NCBI GenBank assembly: GCA_030264375.1 | Contig: JASCQW010000105.1 | Span: 54,742,269 to 54,806,268 of the forward strand | DNA from: Carcharhinus longimanus | Lineage: Eukaryota | DNA length: 64,000 bases | Direction: 5' to 3' | Part shown: positions 1 through 48,872 of the stretch, in pieces | Layout of the letters: every line of letters begins with the position of its first letter | Numbering within the stretch: position 1 is the stretch's first letter | Position numbers and translations under genes: made by a program | Notes under the pieces: model-generated | What the model was told of the DNA's origin: nothing | Seen by the model: the letters and a program-made list of their open reading frames with translations, nothing else | Databases searched by the model: none

Positions 1-950
1 CTTACTTTCTTCATGAGCCTACCATGGGGAACCTTATCAAACGCCTTACTAAAATCCATGTATACGACATCAACTGCCCTACCTTCATCTACACACTTAG
101 TTACCTCCTCAAAGAATTCAATCAAATTTGTGAGGCAAGATTTACCCTTCACGAATCCGTGCTGACTATCCCGGATTAAGCTGCATCTTTCCAAATGGTC
201 ATAAATCCTGTCCCTCAGGACCTTTTCCATCAACGTATCGACCACTGAAGTAAGACTAACCGGCTTATAATTAGCAGTGTTATTCCTATTTCCTTTCTTG
301 AACAGAGGAACAACATTCGCCACTCTCCAGTCCTCTGGCACTATCCCTATGGACAATGAGGACCCAAAGATCAAAGCCAAAGACTCTGCAATCTCATCAC
401 TTGCCTCCCAAAGAATCCTAGGATATATCCTATCTGGCCCAGGGGGCTTAATGACCCTTAGGTTTTTCAACATTGCTAATACATTTTCCCTCAGAACATC
501 TACCTCCTCCAGCCTATCAGCCTGTATCACACTCTCATCCTCAAAAATGTGGCCCCTCTCCTTGGTAAACACTGAAGAAAAGTATTCATTCATCACCTCT
601 CTTATCTCTTCTGACTCCGTGCACAAGTTCCCACTACTATACTTGATCGGCCCGAACATCACCCTGGTCATTCTTTTATTTCTCACGTAAGAGTAAAAAG
701 CCTAGGGTTTTCCTTTATCCGACCCACCAAGGACTTCTCATGCCTCTTCCCAGCTCTCCTAAGCCCTTTTTTTTATTTAGCTCATCCCTTTCTACCTTGT
801 AACCCTCAAGCGACCCAACTGAACCTTGTTTTCTCATTCTAACATACATCTCCTTTTTCCTCTCGACAAGACATTCAACCCCTTTTGTGAACCATGGTTC
901 CCTCACTCGGCCATTTCCTCCCTGCCTGACAGGGGCATATCTATCAAGGA
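1..950 (-). mobile_element. CR1-clade LINE ORF2 (reverse transcriptase) fragment
   Basis: The minus strand near 1-70 reads DVVYMDFSKAFDKVPHGRLMRKV, and REPWFTKGVECLVERKKE occurs near 900. The + strand ORF 277-690 is its antisense shadow. Confidence 0.9.
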
Positions 951-1717
951 CTGAGAACCTGATATTTTTTGATATTTTCTGGCAAGGACTAAACGCAAGC
1001 TTGGAATAACAGTTTGTGTTGCTTCTGAGCTTTCAGTATTTTGTTTCAATAAAATTAGATGGACCCATCCCTGGCCCCTTCCTAGAGACAAGTACCTTCA
1101 CTTTTTTGTGTTTTCTCACTGGCATGTTCTGCGTCAAAAACCATCTTCTGTCCTATTGAATTGTGTGTTTCTATTTCTCAGCAAAGCTTGTGCTCTCAGT
1201 TGCCTATTTTTCTCAAAACTGGCCACTTTTAGATCTAAGTCTGTATGTTCTTTTATTGATTCCAGCTCTATTATCCTTTCAGTACTGCTAGATCCACAGG
1301 ATTTTTTCACATCCCATTTCTCCTTCCTCGATTCATAATTTCGACCTTTCTAATGGTCTCTGCTTTCCCATTAGTCTATGCACAACACAATGCAATAACA
1401 AAGCACCTAATATATGTACTTTTATACTTCAACTGCATTCTACTCAAGCCCCCTTGACTGCTCCAATCCCCCCACATGTTTCATACTGCTATTTCCCCTC
1501 CAGAGCCCTGAACAACTTGTCTGATTTCTAGCAGACACCTCTGCCTCCCACTTCCTTTAAACACTTGTTTTGTTGAGGATACTTTATTTTTTTCCGATTA
1601 AAGTAGATGTTGGTTTGACTCTAGTTGTTCAAAATAATACAAATGGTCATTTTAAAGAAAGTACACAAGGAGCAAAGGCAGATTTGCACTCTTGGGGGCC
1701 CTGCTCTCTGGCTCTTT

Positions 1718-2080
1718 AAGAAATCTGACAACACCCGGTTTAAGCTGAACCAGTTTATTTGATAGTAATCCCACAAGCTTTCGGAAATGGTGTTCCTTCG
1801 TCAGGTGTGTGGAAGGTTCTGATTAGAGGCATATAAAAACACGCACAGTTTACAGAATACTGATTAGAATGCAAGTCTTTGCAGCTGACTTGCTATTCAA
1901 GTCTTAAAGATGCAGACAGTGTGAGTGGAAATAGCATTAGCATAGGTTAAAGAGATGTGTATTGTCTCCAGACAGGACAGTAACTAAGATTTTACAAGCC
2001 CAGGCAAGTCATGGGGGTTATAGATAGTGTGACATGAACCCCAGATCTCTGGCTCTTTGCCAGGGTCTCATTTGAGCCTG
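1718..2080 (-). mobile_element. Penelope-like element 3' end (GIY-YIG C-terminus plus pseudo-LTR)
   Basis: Minus strand 2050-2018 encodes RDLGFMSHYL-stop, typical of the Penelope/Poseidon ORF end. It is followed by a 3' region with a hammerhead motif and the ggtgttgtcagatttctt terminus shared with 48605-48872. Confidence 0.8.
1772..1807 (-). ncRNA. Minimal type I hammerhead ribozyme (Penelope-associated)
   Basis: The minus strand reads CAC-CUGACGA-A-GGAA caccau UUCC-GAAA-GC-UU-GUG. The core boxes are intact, with a 4-bp stem II, a palindromic AAGCUU stem III and a 3-bp stem I. Confidence 0.75.
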
Positions 2081-2209
2081 TNNNNNNNNNNNNNNNNNNN
2101 NNNNNNNNNNNNNTGCTGTCGCAGCTACTCAGTTCTCCACCCCGCATTCATTGGGCAGGGCTCCGTACTGCAGCACTTTGTTTCATTGCAAGTCTGCCTC
2201 TGTACAAAA

Positions 2210-2580
2210 GAAACATATAGAAACATTGAAAGTAGTAGCAGGAGCAAGCTATTTGGCCTTCTAAGCTTGCTTCGCCATTCATTTTGATCATGGCTGATCA
2301 TCAAATTCAATATTCTCATCCCATCTTCCCCTATTTCCCTTGATCACTTTAGCTCCAAGAGTTATGTTTATTTCTTGAAATCACACAATGTTTTGGCCTT
2401 AACTACTTTCTGTGGTAGTGAATTCCACAGAGCCATCACTCTCTGGGTGAAGACATTTCTCCTCACTCAGTCCCAAAAGGTTGACCCCTTATCCTCAAAC
2501 TATGACCCCTTGGAACTCCCCTACCATTGGGAACATTCCTTCTGAATCTACCCTGTATAATCCTTTAAATTATTTTGTGT
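2210..2580 (-). mobile_element. CR1 LINE 3' end, decayed
   Basis: Tail-like agaaacatatagaaacat repeats and the reverse complement of the CR1 3' region (gaattccacag...actctctgggtgaagacatttctcctca). Confidence 0.7.
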
Positions 2581-2613
2581 ATGAAATGAGAAGGAATGGT
2601 CCTGGAAAACATT

Positions 2614-3313
2614 GGGCGCAATTCTCCCAGCCCATTAGAGTTCCTCTGTCCCTGTGGGGAGCTAGGTGGAATGAAGGGGGGCTATGGAAACCCCCCAGGG
2701 TGTCAGAGGTAAGGGGAGGTTCCCCCTGGGTATTGCCAGCTTGGCAGTGTAAGCCTGGCCCCCTGGCACTACCCAAGGGACAAAGTGGCAATGCCAAGCT
2801 TCAGGAAGTACCAAGGTGACTGAGCCAGAGGGAGCTGGGACCCATTGGGGGCAGGGGCTCTGTGTTAGGGAGATCAGACAGAGGGAGGGAGGCCAGTGAT
2901 TGGGATTGGCCGTTGTGATAGGGGTCGGCCTGCCGGAGGTGTGGTGGCTGGGGAAGGGGGGTTGGGATTGTGGCATGGGCATGGTCGCGGCTGGTCCAGA
3001 CACATCCTGGGGGCTAGGGATCGGTGGGGCAGTGATGTGTTTGCTGTGCTGGCCAGCAATCGGGAGGCCAGCAATACAGGGCTCCTGTACATGCGCTGAT
3101 CTCGATGCTGACAGATCAGTGAATGTGCAGTGGCCCACCCAGTGCCATGCTGCCAGCCTCTCCAGCGGGAATAGGCCCCACTCTTTGTTTTTCACAAGAT
3201 TCATGCTCGTGCACTCTGCAGTTTGAAAATCCCGCTTGAAAAAAACCCACTAGAATTTACTCCAATTTTTACACTAAATTGACGCTTTGAATTTTTTTGG
3301 GAAAATCTCACCC
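2614..3313. mobile_element. GC-rich non-autonomous DNA transposon (PIF/Harbinger-type MITE)
   Basis: Imperfect TIRs (GGGCGCAATTCTCCCA against the reverse complement GGGTGAGATTTTCCCA). ATT lies on both sides (2611-2613, 3314-3316). The interior resembles 48975-49767, 51171-52111 and 56421-57114. Confidence 0.65.
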
Positions 3314-3316
3314 ATT

Positions 3317-3465
3317 GAGTCAACTTTAAGGGCATTCAAATGGTCAGTGGATAGGCAAATGGATAACATTGGAATAGTTTAGGTTAGAGGGTCATGAGAT
3401 TGGTTCCACTGGTCGGCGCAACATTGAGGGCCGAGGGCCTGTACTGCGCTGTAATGTTCTATGAG
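3317..3465 (+). mobile_element. CR1 LINE 3' end
   Basis: ggtcggcgcaacattgagggccgagggcctgtactgcgctgtaatgttctatg is a CR1/HER1-like 3' terminus. Confidence 0.7.
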
Positions 3466-5100
3466 TCTGTTGATGTACCATCATACCAGTTAATTAATAC
3501 AACAGTTGCATTGGGCAGAGCCATAAGAATTAGTTTGTGAATTCTGAAGGTTCACTTGAAGTTACTGACTCCCATTATCCAATGCAAATGGAAACATAGG
3601 GAGGAAGTGGGTATACAAAAATTATTCCTGAAAGCCATATAGGGGCTCTATGTGAATTGAATTTGTCAATTTCAACTCCGTTTCCTTCTGGTTCCACTCA
3701 GATTTTCCTTCTGTTTGTCTTTGGGCCATGAAAATATTTTGCTTGTATTGCTTTGGATTATGTAATTGAAATGTTTACTCAAAAGAATTAAGACCCAATA
3801 ATCTCTGTATCTACTATGGCTGCTTTAATTACAATATTAGATGATATGAGGTCTTGCACAAAGGCTGTGAGATTAAATCATTAAATTGAGTAATAATAAT
3901 AGTGAACAATCAGATGAACTGATTAAACTTCGATTAAATGTGCAATGCTACATGTCAATGAAGAGAAATAGGCATGTTTAAATTGCAGGCTGGTTTATGT
4001 TGTAGTGCGATGGGAAATGTTGGTCCGCCCTGTAGATTTGAATTTGTTGGCTTAGTCTTTCATTTTCTTAACTAGTCTTAAAACCCTAGTTTTTTTTTTA
4101 TCCACCTTTGTCCCTCCTTCCCAATTTATCTCTGTCTTCTTGAGCAGCTTTCACTTCTATTGCTCTTCCCACCATGATAAATTAGCGCGGGTTTATCAGA
4201 GCACAGCACCATCACACACCTTTTTGCAGCTCCTGCTGCCAAGTTCATCAAAGACCCAAATGCGACAGTTTAAGAAGACTATTCTCCTTTGCATATATTA
4301 ACTAATTTTAGGTTGTAGCAATTGATTTGGCAGCACCGTTAAGATCAGCACTATGGAGACTGCCAGTTGAATCATTGAAGGTAAATGTGTATTGCCTTTA
4401 GAATTTATCTGAAGAGGTGGGAGGAAAGTTGTGATAATTCACTCAACCGTACCGTTCTGTGACTGTATTGGGCAGCTGTAAAAATGTTTGTGATGGTGGA
4501 TACACTAGTGTGCCATCTCAGCTTGCCAAGAATTGTTTCTGGCTGCTTCTTCTGAGAGAAATGATTGTCCTGTTTTATGCAATTTTCATTATTTGCAAAA
4601 TAAAAGCAACTTACCTGTGACAATCAAATCCTATGATTTTTCCATTTTTACCTGCAATTTTTGCCCTATGAATTTCAAGTCAAGTCCCAATGAATCAGTT
4701 TACTTTCAAACATTATAAAGAATGATTACAGGCACACTCATGGGCACTAATCAGCCAGATCAAATGTTCTGTAAGGTTGCAATATATTTACTGTAACAGT
4801 AAAAATGCAGAGTGCAGTAAAAAGGGGAGGGCATCGAGGTACACATTGAATTTAAACATTAATACTTTGAATACAGTATCTCTCTCCATCCCTCCCAGGC
4901 CTCCGATATTGTCTGTTGCTTGGTATGCTAGTTGATCCATGTAATTATTTTGTACATTTAATGCCTTGCTTATTAGTGTGGAATGTTTGTAATAGCTTCT
5001 GATGAAAAAATTAAGTGTTGTACACAGTTTATAAATTGGAATGAAAAAATCACTGACTGCTCTCAGCTTGGGTTTACTGAAATCTTGCTGGCACCGTTTC

Positions 5101-5452
5101 ATAAGAACATAAGAACATAAGAAATAGGAGCAGGAGTAGGCCATCTAGCCCTTCGAGCCTGCCCCGCCATTNNNNNNNNNNNNNNNNNNNNNNNNNNNNN
5201 NNNNNNNNNNNNNNNNNNNNNNNNNNNNNNNNNNNNNNNNNNNNNNNNNNNNNNNNNNNNNNNNNNNNNNNTGGGGCACTCCACTAGTCACCAACCGCCA
5301 ATCCGAATAGCACCCATTAACCCCCACTCTCTGCCTCCTATTTGACAATCAATCCTCTATCCACGCTAACACCCTACCCCCAACTCCATGCCCCCTTACC
5401 TTCTGCAATAACCTCTTGTGAGGTGTCTTGTCAAAAGCCTTCTGAAAATCAA
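5101..5452 (-). mobile_element. CR1 LINE spanning an assembly gap
   Basis: (ataagaac)n tail with aggagcaggagtaggccat at 5101-5170. After the gap the minus strand carries the RT region (DFQKAFDKTPHKRLL-like). Confidence 0.8.
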
Positions 5453-5906
5453 GAAAGAATATCATGCTGAATATCATGAAAACTAAATGTAGAGAACCTC
5501 ACCCTGCCCATTTTAAAAAAAAACATAGCACAGGACTAGAAGTACAGATGGGAGGTGCCAAGCAATAAGATTAGAGCTGCAGGTAAATGACACGCTGGTG
5601 CAAGGTCCTATCTTAATATTATTTAAAGTCAAAACTGCTGATACTCAGTCAGTTATTTCTTTGACATTGGCTTGCATTCTCTGGGTCTGCTCATTAGAAA
5701 TTCTGCATTTCTGCATCAGAGGCACTGTACATCATGTTTAGAATATGCCCTCCCCTTCTTCCTTCAGATGAAGCTATTTTTAGATTCCCATAGAATCTAA
5801 ATAGAAGATGCTGAACGAAGACAAAAACATCTTGCTTTGTACAATCATCTTTGTTCATACGTATGCATTGTATACGCACAATGATCTATTCAGCCATCGC
5901 TTCAAT

Positions 5907-6210
5907 CAGGTGGCACAGTGGTTGGCATTGCTTCCTCAGTGCCAGGGACTCTGGTTTCATTTCAGCTTTGGGTGACTATCTGTGGGGATGTTCTCTCTGT
6001 GTCTATGTGGGTTTCCTTTGGATATTCTGGTTTCCTCCCACAGTCCAAAGATGTGCCATTGGATTAGCCATGCTAAATTCCCCATTAATGTCCATTAGCC
6101 ATGATAAATGCATGGGGCGGAGTGGAGGGCCTGGTGGGATGCTCTTTCGGAGGGTCAGTGCAGACTCGATGGCTGAATGTCCTCTTTCTGCATTGCAGAG
6201 ATTCTATGGT
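5907..6210 (+). mobile_element. tRNA-derived SINE (HE1-like elasmobranch family)
   Basis: ggtggcacagtggttggcattgcttcctcagtgccagggactctggttt head, tcctcccacagtccaaagatgtg core and CR1-like tail. Confidence 0.75.
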
Positions 6211-8511: not shown

Positions 8512-9549
8512 ATGGGAAATTCAGAGAGTCAGAACGATAGCGAACGAGCATTTTCTGGAGATGAGCGTGCAGGCCTGACACGCAAGCACATGTCTCGATC
8601 ACTTCGTATTCCAACTAAAACCTCACGAAGAGCCAGGCCTGCCTCTGCAGTCAGGATTACGCACAGAAATTCTGAAACCAGCACTAAATCTAGCAGCACA
8701 CCCAGCATTCCACAATCACTGGCCCGGGATGGTCTGGACATCGGTAATCCCGGAGACCTTAATAATGTTTTGACTGAAGACTTTACTCACCCGTCTTGGG
8801 TTGGTAGAATGGGTAAAAATGTAAGGCCTGTGTCTTATCATACAGGCTCTTCGCTTTCCAATGCCAGGAGGAGGAGTGCTGTACAACCACAACGTTCTAG
8901 GGATGAACTTGACATTTGCTTGGACAAGCATATTGTCCAAGATATAGAGAATTTTGATGAAATTGGATTAGAGTCTGCTTGCCAGGCAAATCTTGGAGAT
9001 CTGCATCTAGTTACTGGAAATGGAACAACTGTTTTAGAAAGCACAAATATCAGGAAAAAACGTTCCAAATCTGCTGACATGTGGCGCCAAGATAGTATGG
9101 AATTTTCCTTGTCTGATCTAAGCCAAGATCGATTAACAAGCACGGAAGATCTGTTGGATAATAATGATGACAAGGACTATGCAGAAAGTAGGTTAATAAA
9201 TAGTAACTCCATGGACTTGGAACAACTGAGTGGAAACCAGCGAGCTAACTCTCTAAATGAACTATGCGGTCAGAAACTAACTGGTGCAAGCATGAACAAG
9301 ACACGGAGAAATAGATTTATGACTTACTATCGGAATTTAAGGGTCCATTCGCATGGCACAATGCTGCCAGAAAATACACCTGCTGTGACATGGTCTGCTG
9401 GAGGAGATGCAAGTATATCTTCATATGCTGCCTCTACACTTCCCTGCAGGAGGTCCCATTGCCTTTCTGAAGGAGCCTCTAAAGGCCGATTAAGCCACAT
9501 TAATGATGAGAGCAGAACTACACATGTCAGAAGGTCCAAAACAACACAG
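8512..9549 (+). CDS. TIAM1: TIAM1 first coding exon (N-myristoylation motif, PEST/regulatory N-terminus)
   Basis: Acceptor tttcctcAG ends at 8499. ATG at 8512 in aaacATGG. Encodes MGNSESQ...RKHMSRSLR...KSSSTPSIPQSLA...KKRSKSADMWRQDSMEFSLSDLSQ...TLPCRRSHCLSEGA...SKTTQ. Donor CAG|gtaatg at 9549/9550, phase 0. Confidence 0.95.
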
Positions 9550-10946
9550 GTAATGCATAGGATAAAAGGTAATGTTAGCTAGCTTTTATTCAGTGGTTAA
9601 ATAGTACAATAAATGGTAAAGGTTAATTGCAAACATTTGTAGGATAATAGTTTGATGACAAATAGTCAACAGTATTCTGAAAATGAGGGTTTGCCATTCA
9701 ATTTTTGTCTTATCTAGCTGTGGCCAGAAAGACCTTCAAATAGATTTTAAAGTGCTGAAGTTAATTAACATTTATCAGTATGCAGGTAATTATTCAGCTG
9801 CAGGAACAACCTTATGTGTGTTCTTGCAAACTGCAAATCCTTACCTCTGGCTAGTTAATTATATAACTGTGCTGTTGGACAGCCTGAAATGAATTTATAG
9901 AATACCTGTGATGTAGAATGATATTTGGTACTTGGACTGCTGTTATGCATATATAGTTTAAAGCTGATTTCATGTCAAGATAATCTAATCAAAATAACTT
10001 TGCAGTATACAACTGGCAGTTGAAAATAAATGGACAATCAGAAGCTATGTATGCTCTGCTTGTGAACTATGAATGTTGTGTTTCCTCACCATGAAAGCTC
10101 CCAACTGCTATACGTTAAAACCCCACAACTTAAAATTGTCACAAAACAATAGTTCAGGAAAATTAATTTCTGCAACCCACATGCACCTTAATCAATCATC
10201 ACCCCAGTTGAGGAACTCTTGTCACCAAACTTCCTGGATTTGGCTATATATTACTCTTTCTTCCTCCTTTTGTGGGAAGAATTTCCAGGTATCAGTTCTG
10301 CAATTGCAGTGCCCCATTATCTTATGTCATAGTTTAATTATGCAGAATCTCCAACCTCTGACCTACACCTATAGCCACAGTATTTATATGGCTGGACCAG
10401 TTCAGTTTCTCTTTCTGATGCTTAATAGCTCATGTTGAAATCGTTAACGTTCAGGAAAGATATCTGTTTATGCGACCCAGATGTGCATAATCAATGGGGG
10501 TTAATCCCCTTTGTTAACCCTTTAAGGCTTGTTAACCCTTTTGCTTGCGGGAGAGTGGGGGATGCATATTTCTTTTTTTTCCTCACTTAAGAGGCAATGA
10601 GCAATTTTTAGAAAGATGAGGTTTGACACACCATTAAACTGAATTTTAAAATTGTGGTATTAGGAAAATAAACACTTGCTGAGCAAAAACAAAATAAGCA
10701 AATAATTAGCTGATGAGGTTAAAAAATTTAAATTTAAGAGAAATTAATAAAAATAACCAGAGTGTGAGAGGGTCAGTGTGTGTGTATACTGGCTTGGTGC
10801 TCACTAACTCGTCCACGCCCACTGTGTATTGGTGCGAGTGTGAGTTGCTATGTGGTGATGAGAGTGAATGAGGAGCCTGAGACTGGGAAGCAGACATGCA
10901 TATGGGTCATGTGTGCGCACACGCACAGCACGTGCATGCATACACA

Positions 10947-12444: not shown

Positions 12445-12886
12445 GATGTTACTACAGGAGATGGAAGTGAATGTGCAGACAGTGGTATTGATGGTGCGAC
12501 GACAGATAATGATCATCTATCCCGTTATTCCAATATTACCAGTTCAACATGCCATCCGCCCACTTTTAATCGTGGGTTAATTTGTAGTGAACTTGGCGCA
12601 GCAGGAGATGCACTTCGGCAAGGGGTGTATGAAAATTTTAGGTGCACGTTGGAGTCAAATGCTATCAACACAGAAAATCCAGAAGAAGCAGAGTCAGCTT
12701 TGAGCGATGAACAAAGCAGCGGTACCCTCAGCTCCCCAGGACAGTCAGATAGCCAATCTACGGACCAAGGGACTGTTCGAAAAGCAGGCTCACTTGCTGT
12801 GAAGAACTTTTTAGTCCACAAGAAAAATAAAAAAGTGGAATTGGCTACACGAAGAAAATGGAAATATTATTGGGTATCATTAAAAG
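12445..12886 (+). CDS. TIAM1: TIAM1 coding exon (DSGIDG degron, GVYENF, start of the N-terminal PH domain)
   Basis: Acceptor ttctatgtAG|GAT. Encodes [21 protein letters not shown]...GVYENFR...[16 protein letters not shown]...[40 protein letters not shown]. Donor G|gtacat, phase 1. Confidence 0.95.
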
Positions 12887-13304
12887 GTACATTTTAATCT
12901 CTATTTTGTTTCAGAAAACTCATTGTCTGAACCTTTAACTATGAAATGGATTAAAATGCTGCTTGCTACGTGTGCTATTTATGGTTGGAAATATTTTGGT
13001 ATCAGCTTTGGTATCACCAGTTATGCTTCATTCTAACATACAGCATTCTTTAAAAAGAAATCAACTTAAATTATACTGTATTCTAGGTTATATTATCCTC
13101 AGCCTTGCACCTATTTTTGGATGTAATATAGATGGAAAATCGTGGGAAATGTAATGGAGAAAAAAAGTTTGGCACAAAATGTCTGCTTATCTCGAATGGT
13201 TTTACAATTATCCGCCATCCTCATTCTTGGATCCTATAGCTCCTGGCTAACATCTGCTCTCACCCTGCAAATGGCAAAAAACGTATACAACATCCACCAT
13301 AACT

Positions 13305-47763: not shown

Positions 47764-48576
47764 GTAAGACTGTGCAAAATGCTGAAATATAAATAAATGT
47801 ATGCACAGATTTCCACAAATATTTCTATTCATCAATTGTGATTTTATTTTGCTTTGTTATTTTGGTAGCATTGGCAACCTGCTTTAAAAGAAAATATGAA
47901 ATTTTCCTAACATTTGTGCAAGTGGTCCACGTTGCAAAATTCTTAAGACAGTCAGAGGCTGAGTTATTTGTTTCAATGTGACTTTGAGATCATGATATGA
48001 TTAGAGGCTCGGCTATATACAATGTAAATTGAAATTGTATAATTTATCTCCACTGATTTTGTGCAAAAATGCCTCCTGGTTGTTTTGTTAAAATGCTTGA
48101 ACTGTTTGATTTTTGAAAGCAAACATTGACTTTGAATTAACTGGAGTAGACAACAGTGTTGATCATATTTTCCTACAACATTTTTCCCCTGGAATTTTTG
48201 GTTTGCCCATTTACTGGCCAGCCAGATTCTTCTTCTGTAAGAACAGGAAGTATGCTGCCAGAACCCAGCCAGCTTGCTTGCTGAGTTGTATTTGCTTACT
48301 TCAAGGTATTTGGCACTAACTTGGAAATAACTTCTTAGTTTCTTCCCTTACTCTGGACTGAGATTCGATCTTTAGTAGGGATTAAGCTTGTGTCCCTAGT
48401 CTTCCAATATCCACTGTGTTCCTGTCTATCACACCACTTGCTTTCAACTTTGGAATTAAGTATTAGTAGCATTAGTTGCTACATGTTAGTATATTAGTTT
48501 ATAATAATGTAATTGTATACTTTGAAAGAATAGTAGTTTATTTCAAGGCGATCAGATACTGGACACCTTCAGACAT

Positions 48577-48872
48577 GATGCCAGCGTTGGACTGGGGTAA
48601 ACACAGTAAGAAGTCTGACAACACCAGGTTTAAGTCCAACCAATTTATTCGATAGTAAACNNNNNNNNNNNNNNNNNNNNNNNNNNNNNNNNNNNNNNNN
48701 NNNNNNNNNNNNNNNNNNNNNNNNNNNNNNNNNNNNNNNNNNNNNNNNNNNNNNNNNNNNAAGAAGTCTGACAACACCAGGTTTAAGTCCAACCAATTTA
48801 TTCGATAGTAAACTCAAATAACTATCAAATAAATTGGCTGGACTTAAACCTGGTGTTGTTAGACTTCTTACT
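48577..48872. mobile_element. Fold-back Penelope-derived mini-element with a 12-bp target-site duplication
   Basis: accttcagacat at 48565-48576 and 48873-48884. 52-bp inverted arms with 3 mismatches and an 11-nt loop. Arms are homologous to 1718-1766. Confidence 0.75.

Follow-up and report, generated by a model that had tools for sequence, protein, structure and literature searches.

The window, which is the whole 64,000-nucleotide stretch of Carcharhinus longimanus DNA that was analysed, contains the minimal hammerhead of a 328-bp truncated Penelope-like copy, and this copy is very probably an inert fossil whose motif has stayed intact by chance. The motif is a real minimal hammerhead of a known class, carried by a shark-type Penelope family outside the 2014 lists in the accessible parts of PMC4209133. 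Two observations count against an inert fossil: all 16 core bases and the G10.1-C11.1 pair are kept, and the insertion has persisted in a related species as well.

Read on the minus strand from 1807 to 1772, the motif comprises 36 letters (CAC CUGACGA A GGAA CACCAU UUCC GAAA GC UU GUG), with the predicted hammerhead cut between U1775 (U17) and G1774 (G1.1). The core (CUGANGA and GAAA..UH) is complete, with all positions present; the extra A between positions 9 and 10.1 is 1797, and the G10.1-C11.1 pair corresponds to G1796 and C1783 (Table 1). On re-reading the sequence, the letters, the position, the extra A and the cut site were all as given in the preliminary description. As is typical of minimal hammerheads, positions 15.2-16.2 are palindromic (A-G-C-U, 1779..1776) and helix III is absent in the monomer. 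Stem III had been described as the palindrome AAGCUU, which is indeed present, but only its inner AGCU is usable as stem III.

Table 1. Positions of the hammerhead, of the insertion that carries it and of the nearby TIAM1 exons in the window
Feature	Positions	Strand	Basis
Target-site duplication, left copy, 13 bp	1705..1717	.	Identical to 2046-2058
5'-truncated Penelope-like end (last ORF codons and 3' pLTR), 328 bp	1718..2045	-	Genomic copies 89-92% identical
57 nt of element downstream of the cut site, AATAAA at 1759..1754	1718..1774	-	Stops at the short family 3' end; optional tail absent
Minimal type I hammerhead motif	1772..1807	-	Sequence and pairing descriptor; consensus in PMC4209133 Fig. 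S3
G12 A13 A14 A15.1, GC, U16.1, U17; AGCU (1779..1776) as would-be shared dimer stem III	1775..1782	-	
Stem II GGAA/UUCC, 4 bp, 6-nt loop, G10.1-C11.1 kept	1783..1796	-	Sequence; covariation across subfamilies
Core C3-A9 (CUGACGA) and extra A between 9 and 10.1	1797..1804	-	Sequence; extra base conserved among minimal hammerheads
Stem I 5' strand CAC, 3 bp only, partner GUG 1774..1772	1805..1807	-	Sequence, pair probabilities
Remnant of GIY-YIG ORF end and stop	2018..2045	-	Family ORF related to RT and GIY-YIG proteins
Target-site duplication, right copy	2046..2058	.	First bases resemble family sequence at 5' junction
Presumed first coding exon, ATG 8512, range to open-frame end	8512..9582	+	Pyrimidine tract and AG ending at ~8499
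Open frame holding TIAM1 exon with PH domain start	12445..12897	+	TIAM1 match

The window copy is a 5'-truncated Penelope-like 3' end. For the 328-bp insertion, 4942 candidate places were found genome-wide; the 39 others that score best as full matches show 89-92% identity to it. Relative to the majority of 29 copies, it carries 18 substitutions and one 4-nt deletion; an optional 3' tail is found in 10 of these 29 copies, and the window copy stops at the short end. The end of a Penelope ORF had been placed about 210 nt from the motif, and the stop codon at 2020..2018 lies exactly 210 nt from 1807. The ORF end had been read as RDLGFMSHYL; the ORF end and its stop are there, but the R codon and two bases of the D codon fall in the target-site duplication, so only about nine codons belong to the element. 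Because the copy holds sequence on both sides of the cut site, extending 57 nt beyond it, the template RNA was probably read through this site, either uncut or re-joined.

Longer relatives of the insertion run upstream into a frame with VVYLIRC...WYIGET. At locus L085, the same 3' end (90% over 101 nt) is contiguous with an open frame of 423 residues, the best database relatives of which are shark proteins. With Pfam, neither RVT_1 nor GIY-YIG was matched on the L085 ORF itself and the GIY-YIG fragment gave no informative match; a PDB sequence search toward the identity of the ORF likewise returned no match. The domains were reached through homologues: P0002, which is 77% identical to the L085 ORF, shows RVT_1 (E 4e-6) and GIY-YIG (E 8e-4), both just under the cut-off, and P0001 for RVT_1 and P0062 for GIY-YIG are above the Pfam cut-offs. 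By this homology, the family ORF appears to encode a reverse transcriptase followed by a GIY-YIG domain. Together with the agreement of the motif with the published consensus, this supports the proposal that a Penelope-like 3' end carries a minimal hammerhead of type I here.

By eye, the L085 ORF (one locus) shows a C-x4-C-x2-C linker, which is suggestive of the Neptune type. According to the accessible parts of PMC8557442, a CX2-5CxxC linker between RT and EN is a feature of the Neptune clade, and Neptune-type EN+ PLEs have the same C-terminal GIY-YIG after the RT; as in the shark family, they can be 5'-truncated, have inverted partners and carry an optional tail of 30-40 bp. In contrast to the elements described there, a full-length element with both pLTRs was not recovered among six loci, the longest candidates being broken by N runs. 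The long 'open frames' that were considered as a full-length element proved to be N runs.

The family is very large. With one pattern, 7445 + 7462 = 14,907 motifs were found genome-wide, which as the yield of a single pattern is a lower bound, and the reversed control gave 0. Covariation was analysed on the window motif and 27 of 30 pattern loci; L032 and L059 were excluded for an N next to the motif, and L035 for covering the same stretch as L034. In these 28 rows, stem II pair 20-30 is AU in 18 and GC in 5, and pair 21-29 is GC in 19 and AU in 7. Changes on both sides of stem II number 14, against 5.8 +/- 1.8 in shuffled alignments (0 of 500 shuffles reach it); since the rows are related, which inflates the counts, and the outer two stem II pairs are fixed by the search pattern, these represent a few independent subfamily changes and not 14. 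Stem II covaries between subfamilies, and the structure has therefore been maintained between master elements. Both the genome-wide count and the covariation, which the preliminary description had named as checks, thus came out in favour of the hammerhead.

Among 57 sampled loci, 45 have a motif match: the motif stands alone in 37, there is an inverted partner in 7, and a same-strand partner within 1.5 kb in 1. In the motifs of L031-L060, position 17 varies from subfamily to subfamily and is U in 12, C in 8, A in 4 and G in 2 (n=26). The number of contiguous stem I pairs varies from 0 to 6, and stem I is best formed in the short-loop GGGG/CCCC subfamily. At L034/L035 (1500-1600), two hammerheads stand head to head, 63 bp apart, in a palindrome-forming arrangement comparable to the inverted pairs at 7 of the 45 loci. 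Directly 5' of the motif, L043, L047, L049 and L050 carry the stem II region of the hammerhead a second time, as a short inverted copy, so inversion junctions seem to fall at the motif edge.

The preliminary description had proposed that this intact copy could still self-cleave if transcribed from the minus strand and dimerised; the analysis gave no support to the view that an intact core makes the copy notable or likely to cleave. The window subfamily was defined as the 928 copies matching a 34-base pattern that tolerates decay at three CpGs. G8 and G12 are both kept in 580 of them (62.5%; expected 65.6%), and one or the other was lost by CpG decay in the remaining 348. A hand count of the first 100 listed copies gave G8 to A in 24, G12 to A in 18 and the neutral loop G to A in 19, so that losses of G8 and G12 do not differ from those of the loop G (p 0.49 and 1.0); the whole 16-base core plus C11.1 of the G10.1-C11.1 pair is kept in 44 of these 100. 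In the 29 nearest copies, G8 is changed to A in 10, G12 to A in 3, C11.1 is changed in 9 and the loop G is changed to A in 10. The window copy has 18 substitutions in 328 bases (5.5%) and none in the 16 core bases, an outcome with a chance of 0.41 at that rate. We therefore regard its intactness as ordinary, since it is the majority state in the subfamily and the core would often remain unchanged at this level of divergence. There is no sign of selection on single copies, and G8 and G12 decay at the neutral CpG rate in the subfamily.

The copy probably arose as follows. The ribozyme would be selected only in active master elements, where a tandem precursor RNA would be cut as a strand-swapped dimer through AGCU/AGCU, likely helped by an element protein. 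Insertion would proceed by the element's endonuclease and RT, with target-primed reverse transcription halting after about 330 nt, and each copy would drift once inserted. The window copy lacks its own promoter and points away from TIAM1, and in the folding models its natural flanks lead it to misfold.

The copy could instead be catalytically competent but idle, cutting weakly in vitro as a dimer or with the element protein, and in cells only if an antisense read-through RNA met another family RNA. This reading and that of an inert fossil agree on biological irrelevance and differ on residual chemistry. All consensus features are present, the strand-swapped dimer is fully base-pair compatible, thousands of potential partners carry GAAAGCU, and protein-assisted cutting is reported for an anole PLE (PMC11167929). 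Against it, stem I is just 3 bp long: its pair probability is 0.86-0.91 in the trimmed 36-mer and 0.00-0.01 with the natural flanks, where the energy model predicts a shifted register that pairs the cut site. The six-base palindrome is also predicted to beat the 4-bp stem III. For a 50-mer dimer, the active fold has -9.7 kcal/mol, the six-base palindrome -12.3 and the minimum -23.3; full AAGCUU pairing, which is 2.6 kcal/mol more stable than the AGCU stem III, would tie up A14 and U17. Neither the tertiary contacts of the core nor proteins enter into these nearest-neighbour energies. The gap also does not single out the window copy, because most family motifs have a large one as well (5.1-30.6 kcal/mol among 25 others). 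U17 cut sites, moreover, are slower than C17 or A17. GUU is listed as active in the accessible part of PMC3138052, where a rate for CUU is absent.

The catalytic stem I register is predicted to be disfavoured in the window subfamily. We also considered an alternative stem I as a family-wide off-switch and rejected it, the catalytic register being well populated elsewhere (first-pair probability >= 0.9 in 6 of 26 motifs). No same-strand partner passing the descriptor was found in 114 kb, a further point against the expectation of cleavage. About 40 kb upstream of the window motif and on the same strand, L064 (1693-1795, minus strand) has a hammerhead from a different subfamily that has decayed: its G12 has become A and stem I carries a change.

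In published assays, minimal hammerheads showed no cleavage as monomers and low cleavage as dimers in the accessible text of PMC4209133, and in that of bioRxiv 2026.07.22.740005, Xenopus dimer elements showed no cleavage in 8 of 9. The anole PLE hammerhead needs protein and is dispensable for insertion in vitro, where unprocessed RNA is the main substrate (PMC11167929). An artificial dimer of the window motif might still cut weakly. Overall, we find residual competence of the copy possible but doubtful.

A role at the host locus is far less likely. An exon at 12445-12894 on the plus strand matches TIAM1 with E 3e-19 and TIAM2 with 8e-9, and we take the exon at 8512..9582 to be the first coding exon of TIAM1, from its position and N-terminus. 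The hammerhead lies 6.7 kb upstream of it. A splice-acceptor-like tract precedes 8512 and no CpG-island-like, promoter-like window occurs in 50 kb upstream plus the first 9 kb (59 kb), so the motif is probably in a 5' intron. Its description as antisense to TIAM1 is correct as to strand, the motif being on the minus and TIAM1 on the plus strand, and we infer that it lies inside the TIAM1 transcript. That the TIAM1 sense transcript cannot be cut was borne out, as the motif is on the opposite strand and the descriptor found no plus-strand hammerhead in 114 kb.

Two contigs from one sample of a related species (X18 and X20) run from unique flank, with a divergence of about 3%, across the 3' junction and 57 letters into the element. 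They end at 1774, short of the core, and at the 5' junction there are 24 letters inside, below the 31-letter rule. Because these flank-to-element contigs occur in the related species, the insertion predates the species split and has persisted.

If the copy had been co-opted, it would process antisense RNA transcribed across the 5' region of TIAM1 and would resemble the conserved intronic hammerheads of amniotes. The intact core, the 3' junction common to the related species and the precedent of domesticated intronic hammerheads (PMC6155905, accessible part) would fit such a role. Against it, intactness is the majority state in the subfamily, the motif has no helix III, recognisable tertiary contacts or partner, and the 59 kb contain no promoter-like CpG island. 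Domesticated hammerheads are recognised by lying on the transcribed strand of the host gene, and this motif lies on the other. We consider co-option very unlikely, and it is just as improbable that selection keeps the copy for cutting antisense RNA at the TIAM1 5' region via trans pairing with family RNA; if true, a minimal ribozyme of a retrotransposon would here be at work on a host locus while having no tandem partner. As described in the accessible parts of PMC6155905, the RECK, CTCL and DTNB hammerheads share with the window motif a location in or near a non-coding region of a host gene. They are canonical and conserved across whole vertebrate classes, whereas the window motif is minimal, multi-copy and antisense, with no sign of selection.

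The descriptor, which requires the core, a stem II of at least 3 bp, paired 15.2/16.2 and a stem I of at least 3 bp, matched the 1772..1807 site alone on both strands of the window and of 50 kb upstream, taken as five 10-kb stretches (114 kb in all). Without the pairing requirements the core pattern discriminates poorly: it matched 15 times, with some overlap among the matches, where 5.3 were expected. A chance arrangement of letters has a negligible probability and was rejected: the folding energy is not above chance (z -0.35 to -1.7) and an Rfam scan gave no hammerhead, yet none of 100 simulated 64-kb sequences passed the descriptor, the genome has 14,907 copies against none in the control, stem II covaries and the motif sits where expected in a PLE end. 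The preliminary description had looked to a hammerhead-model search, and here it was disappointed: no hammerhead model matched positions 1-6000 up to E 10 in Rfam. This miss is not counter-evidence, because minimal motifs lack helix III.

The closest known system is the minimal hammerhead of metazoan PLEs (Cervera and De la Pena 2014, PMC4209133). In the accessible parts of that work, these have the same CUGANGAH core, extra base and G10.1-C11.1, the same palindromic 15.2/16.2 with no loop III and a short stem I, and the same U-rich 5' and AU-rich 3' flanks, and their 5'-truncated copies likewise carry one motif, at the 3' end. For Chrysemys picta (turtle) and Philodina roseola (rotifer), a G-C-U-U end like that of the window motif is given there. 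The 4-bp stem II of the window motif is at the short end of the published range, and the shark copy number of at least 14,907 (one pattern) is above the numbers reported, such as about 4,000 per genome in coelacanth and about 9,000 in Xenopus. Cartilaginous fish are absent from Table S1 and Fig. S3 of that paper. We found no description of this shark family in the titles and abstract beginnings of the papers listed on shark hammerheads and Penelope elements; supplements of the 2026 preprint may hold it.

PAc, the Poseidon element of Anolis, has the same PLE pLTR hammerhead, and its insertions extend past the cut site, which fits an uncut template (PMC11167929). PAc was assayed with its protein, whereas the shark copy has no ORF or promoter. 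Non-LTR retrozymes carry the same type I hammerhead, related to that of PLE pLTRs, and are reported in one chondrichthyan genome, according to the accessible text of bioRxiv 10.64898/2026.07.22.740005. Retrozymes are tandem repeats, whereas the window copy stands alone, flanked by a target-site duplication and still carrying the remnant of an ORF. We rejected a retrozyme identity, as head-to-tail tandem units were lacking: the copy is solo, and a same-strand partner occurs at 1 of 45 loci.

The single copy is of little importance, and the family is more useful. In-cell cutting by minimal Penelope hammerheads is an open question in the accessible parts of PMC4209133 and PMC8557442 and in PMC11167929. 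Because the family contains both intact copies and copies broken at CpGs, it has a built-in contrast for a genome-wide test of in vivo cleavage.

Other repeats were observed in the window. At 48570-48870 there are three short fragments of the same Penelope 3' end, each from the part downstream of the hammerhead. Two are on the minus strand around an N run and may reflect an assembly duplication; the third is inverted, on the plus strand. Read depth indicates another very high-copy repeat end at 2250-2595, adjoining the Penelope insertion. The GC-rich stretch at 2759-2948 (minus strand) has a weak Rfam match to HOTTIP_3 (20.9 bits; gathering score 50), which is likely due to chance. An open frame of 233 residues at 3-701 on the minus strand presumably resembles the reverse transcriptase of CR1/L2-type LINEs.
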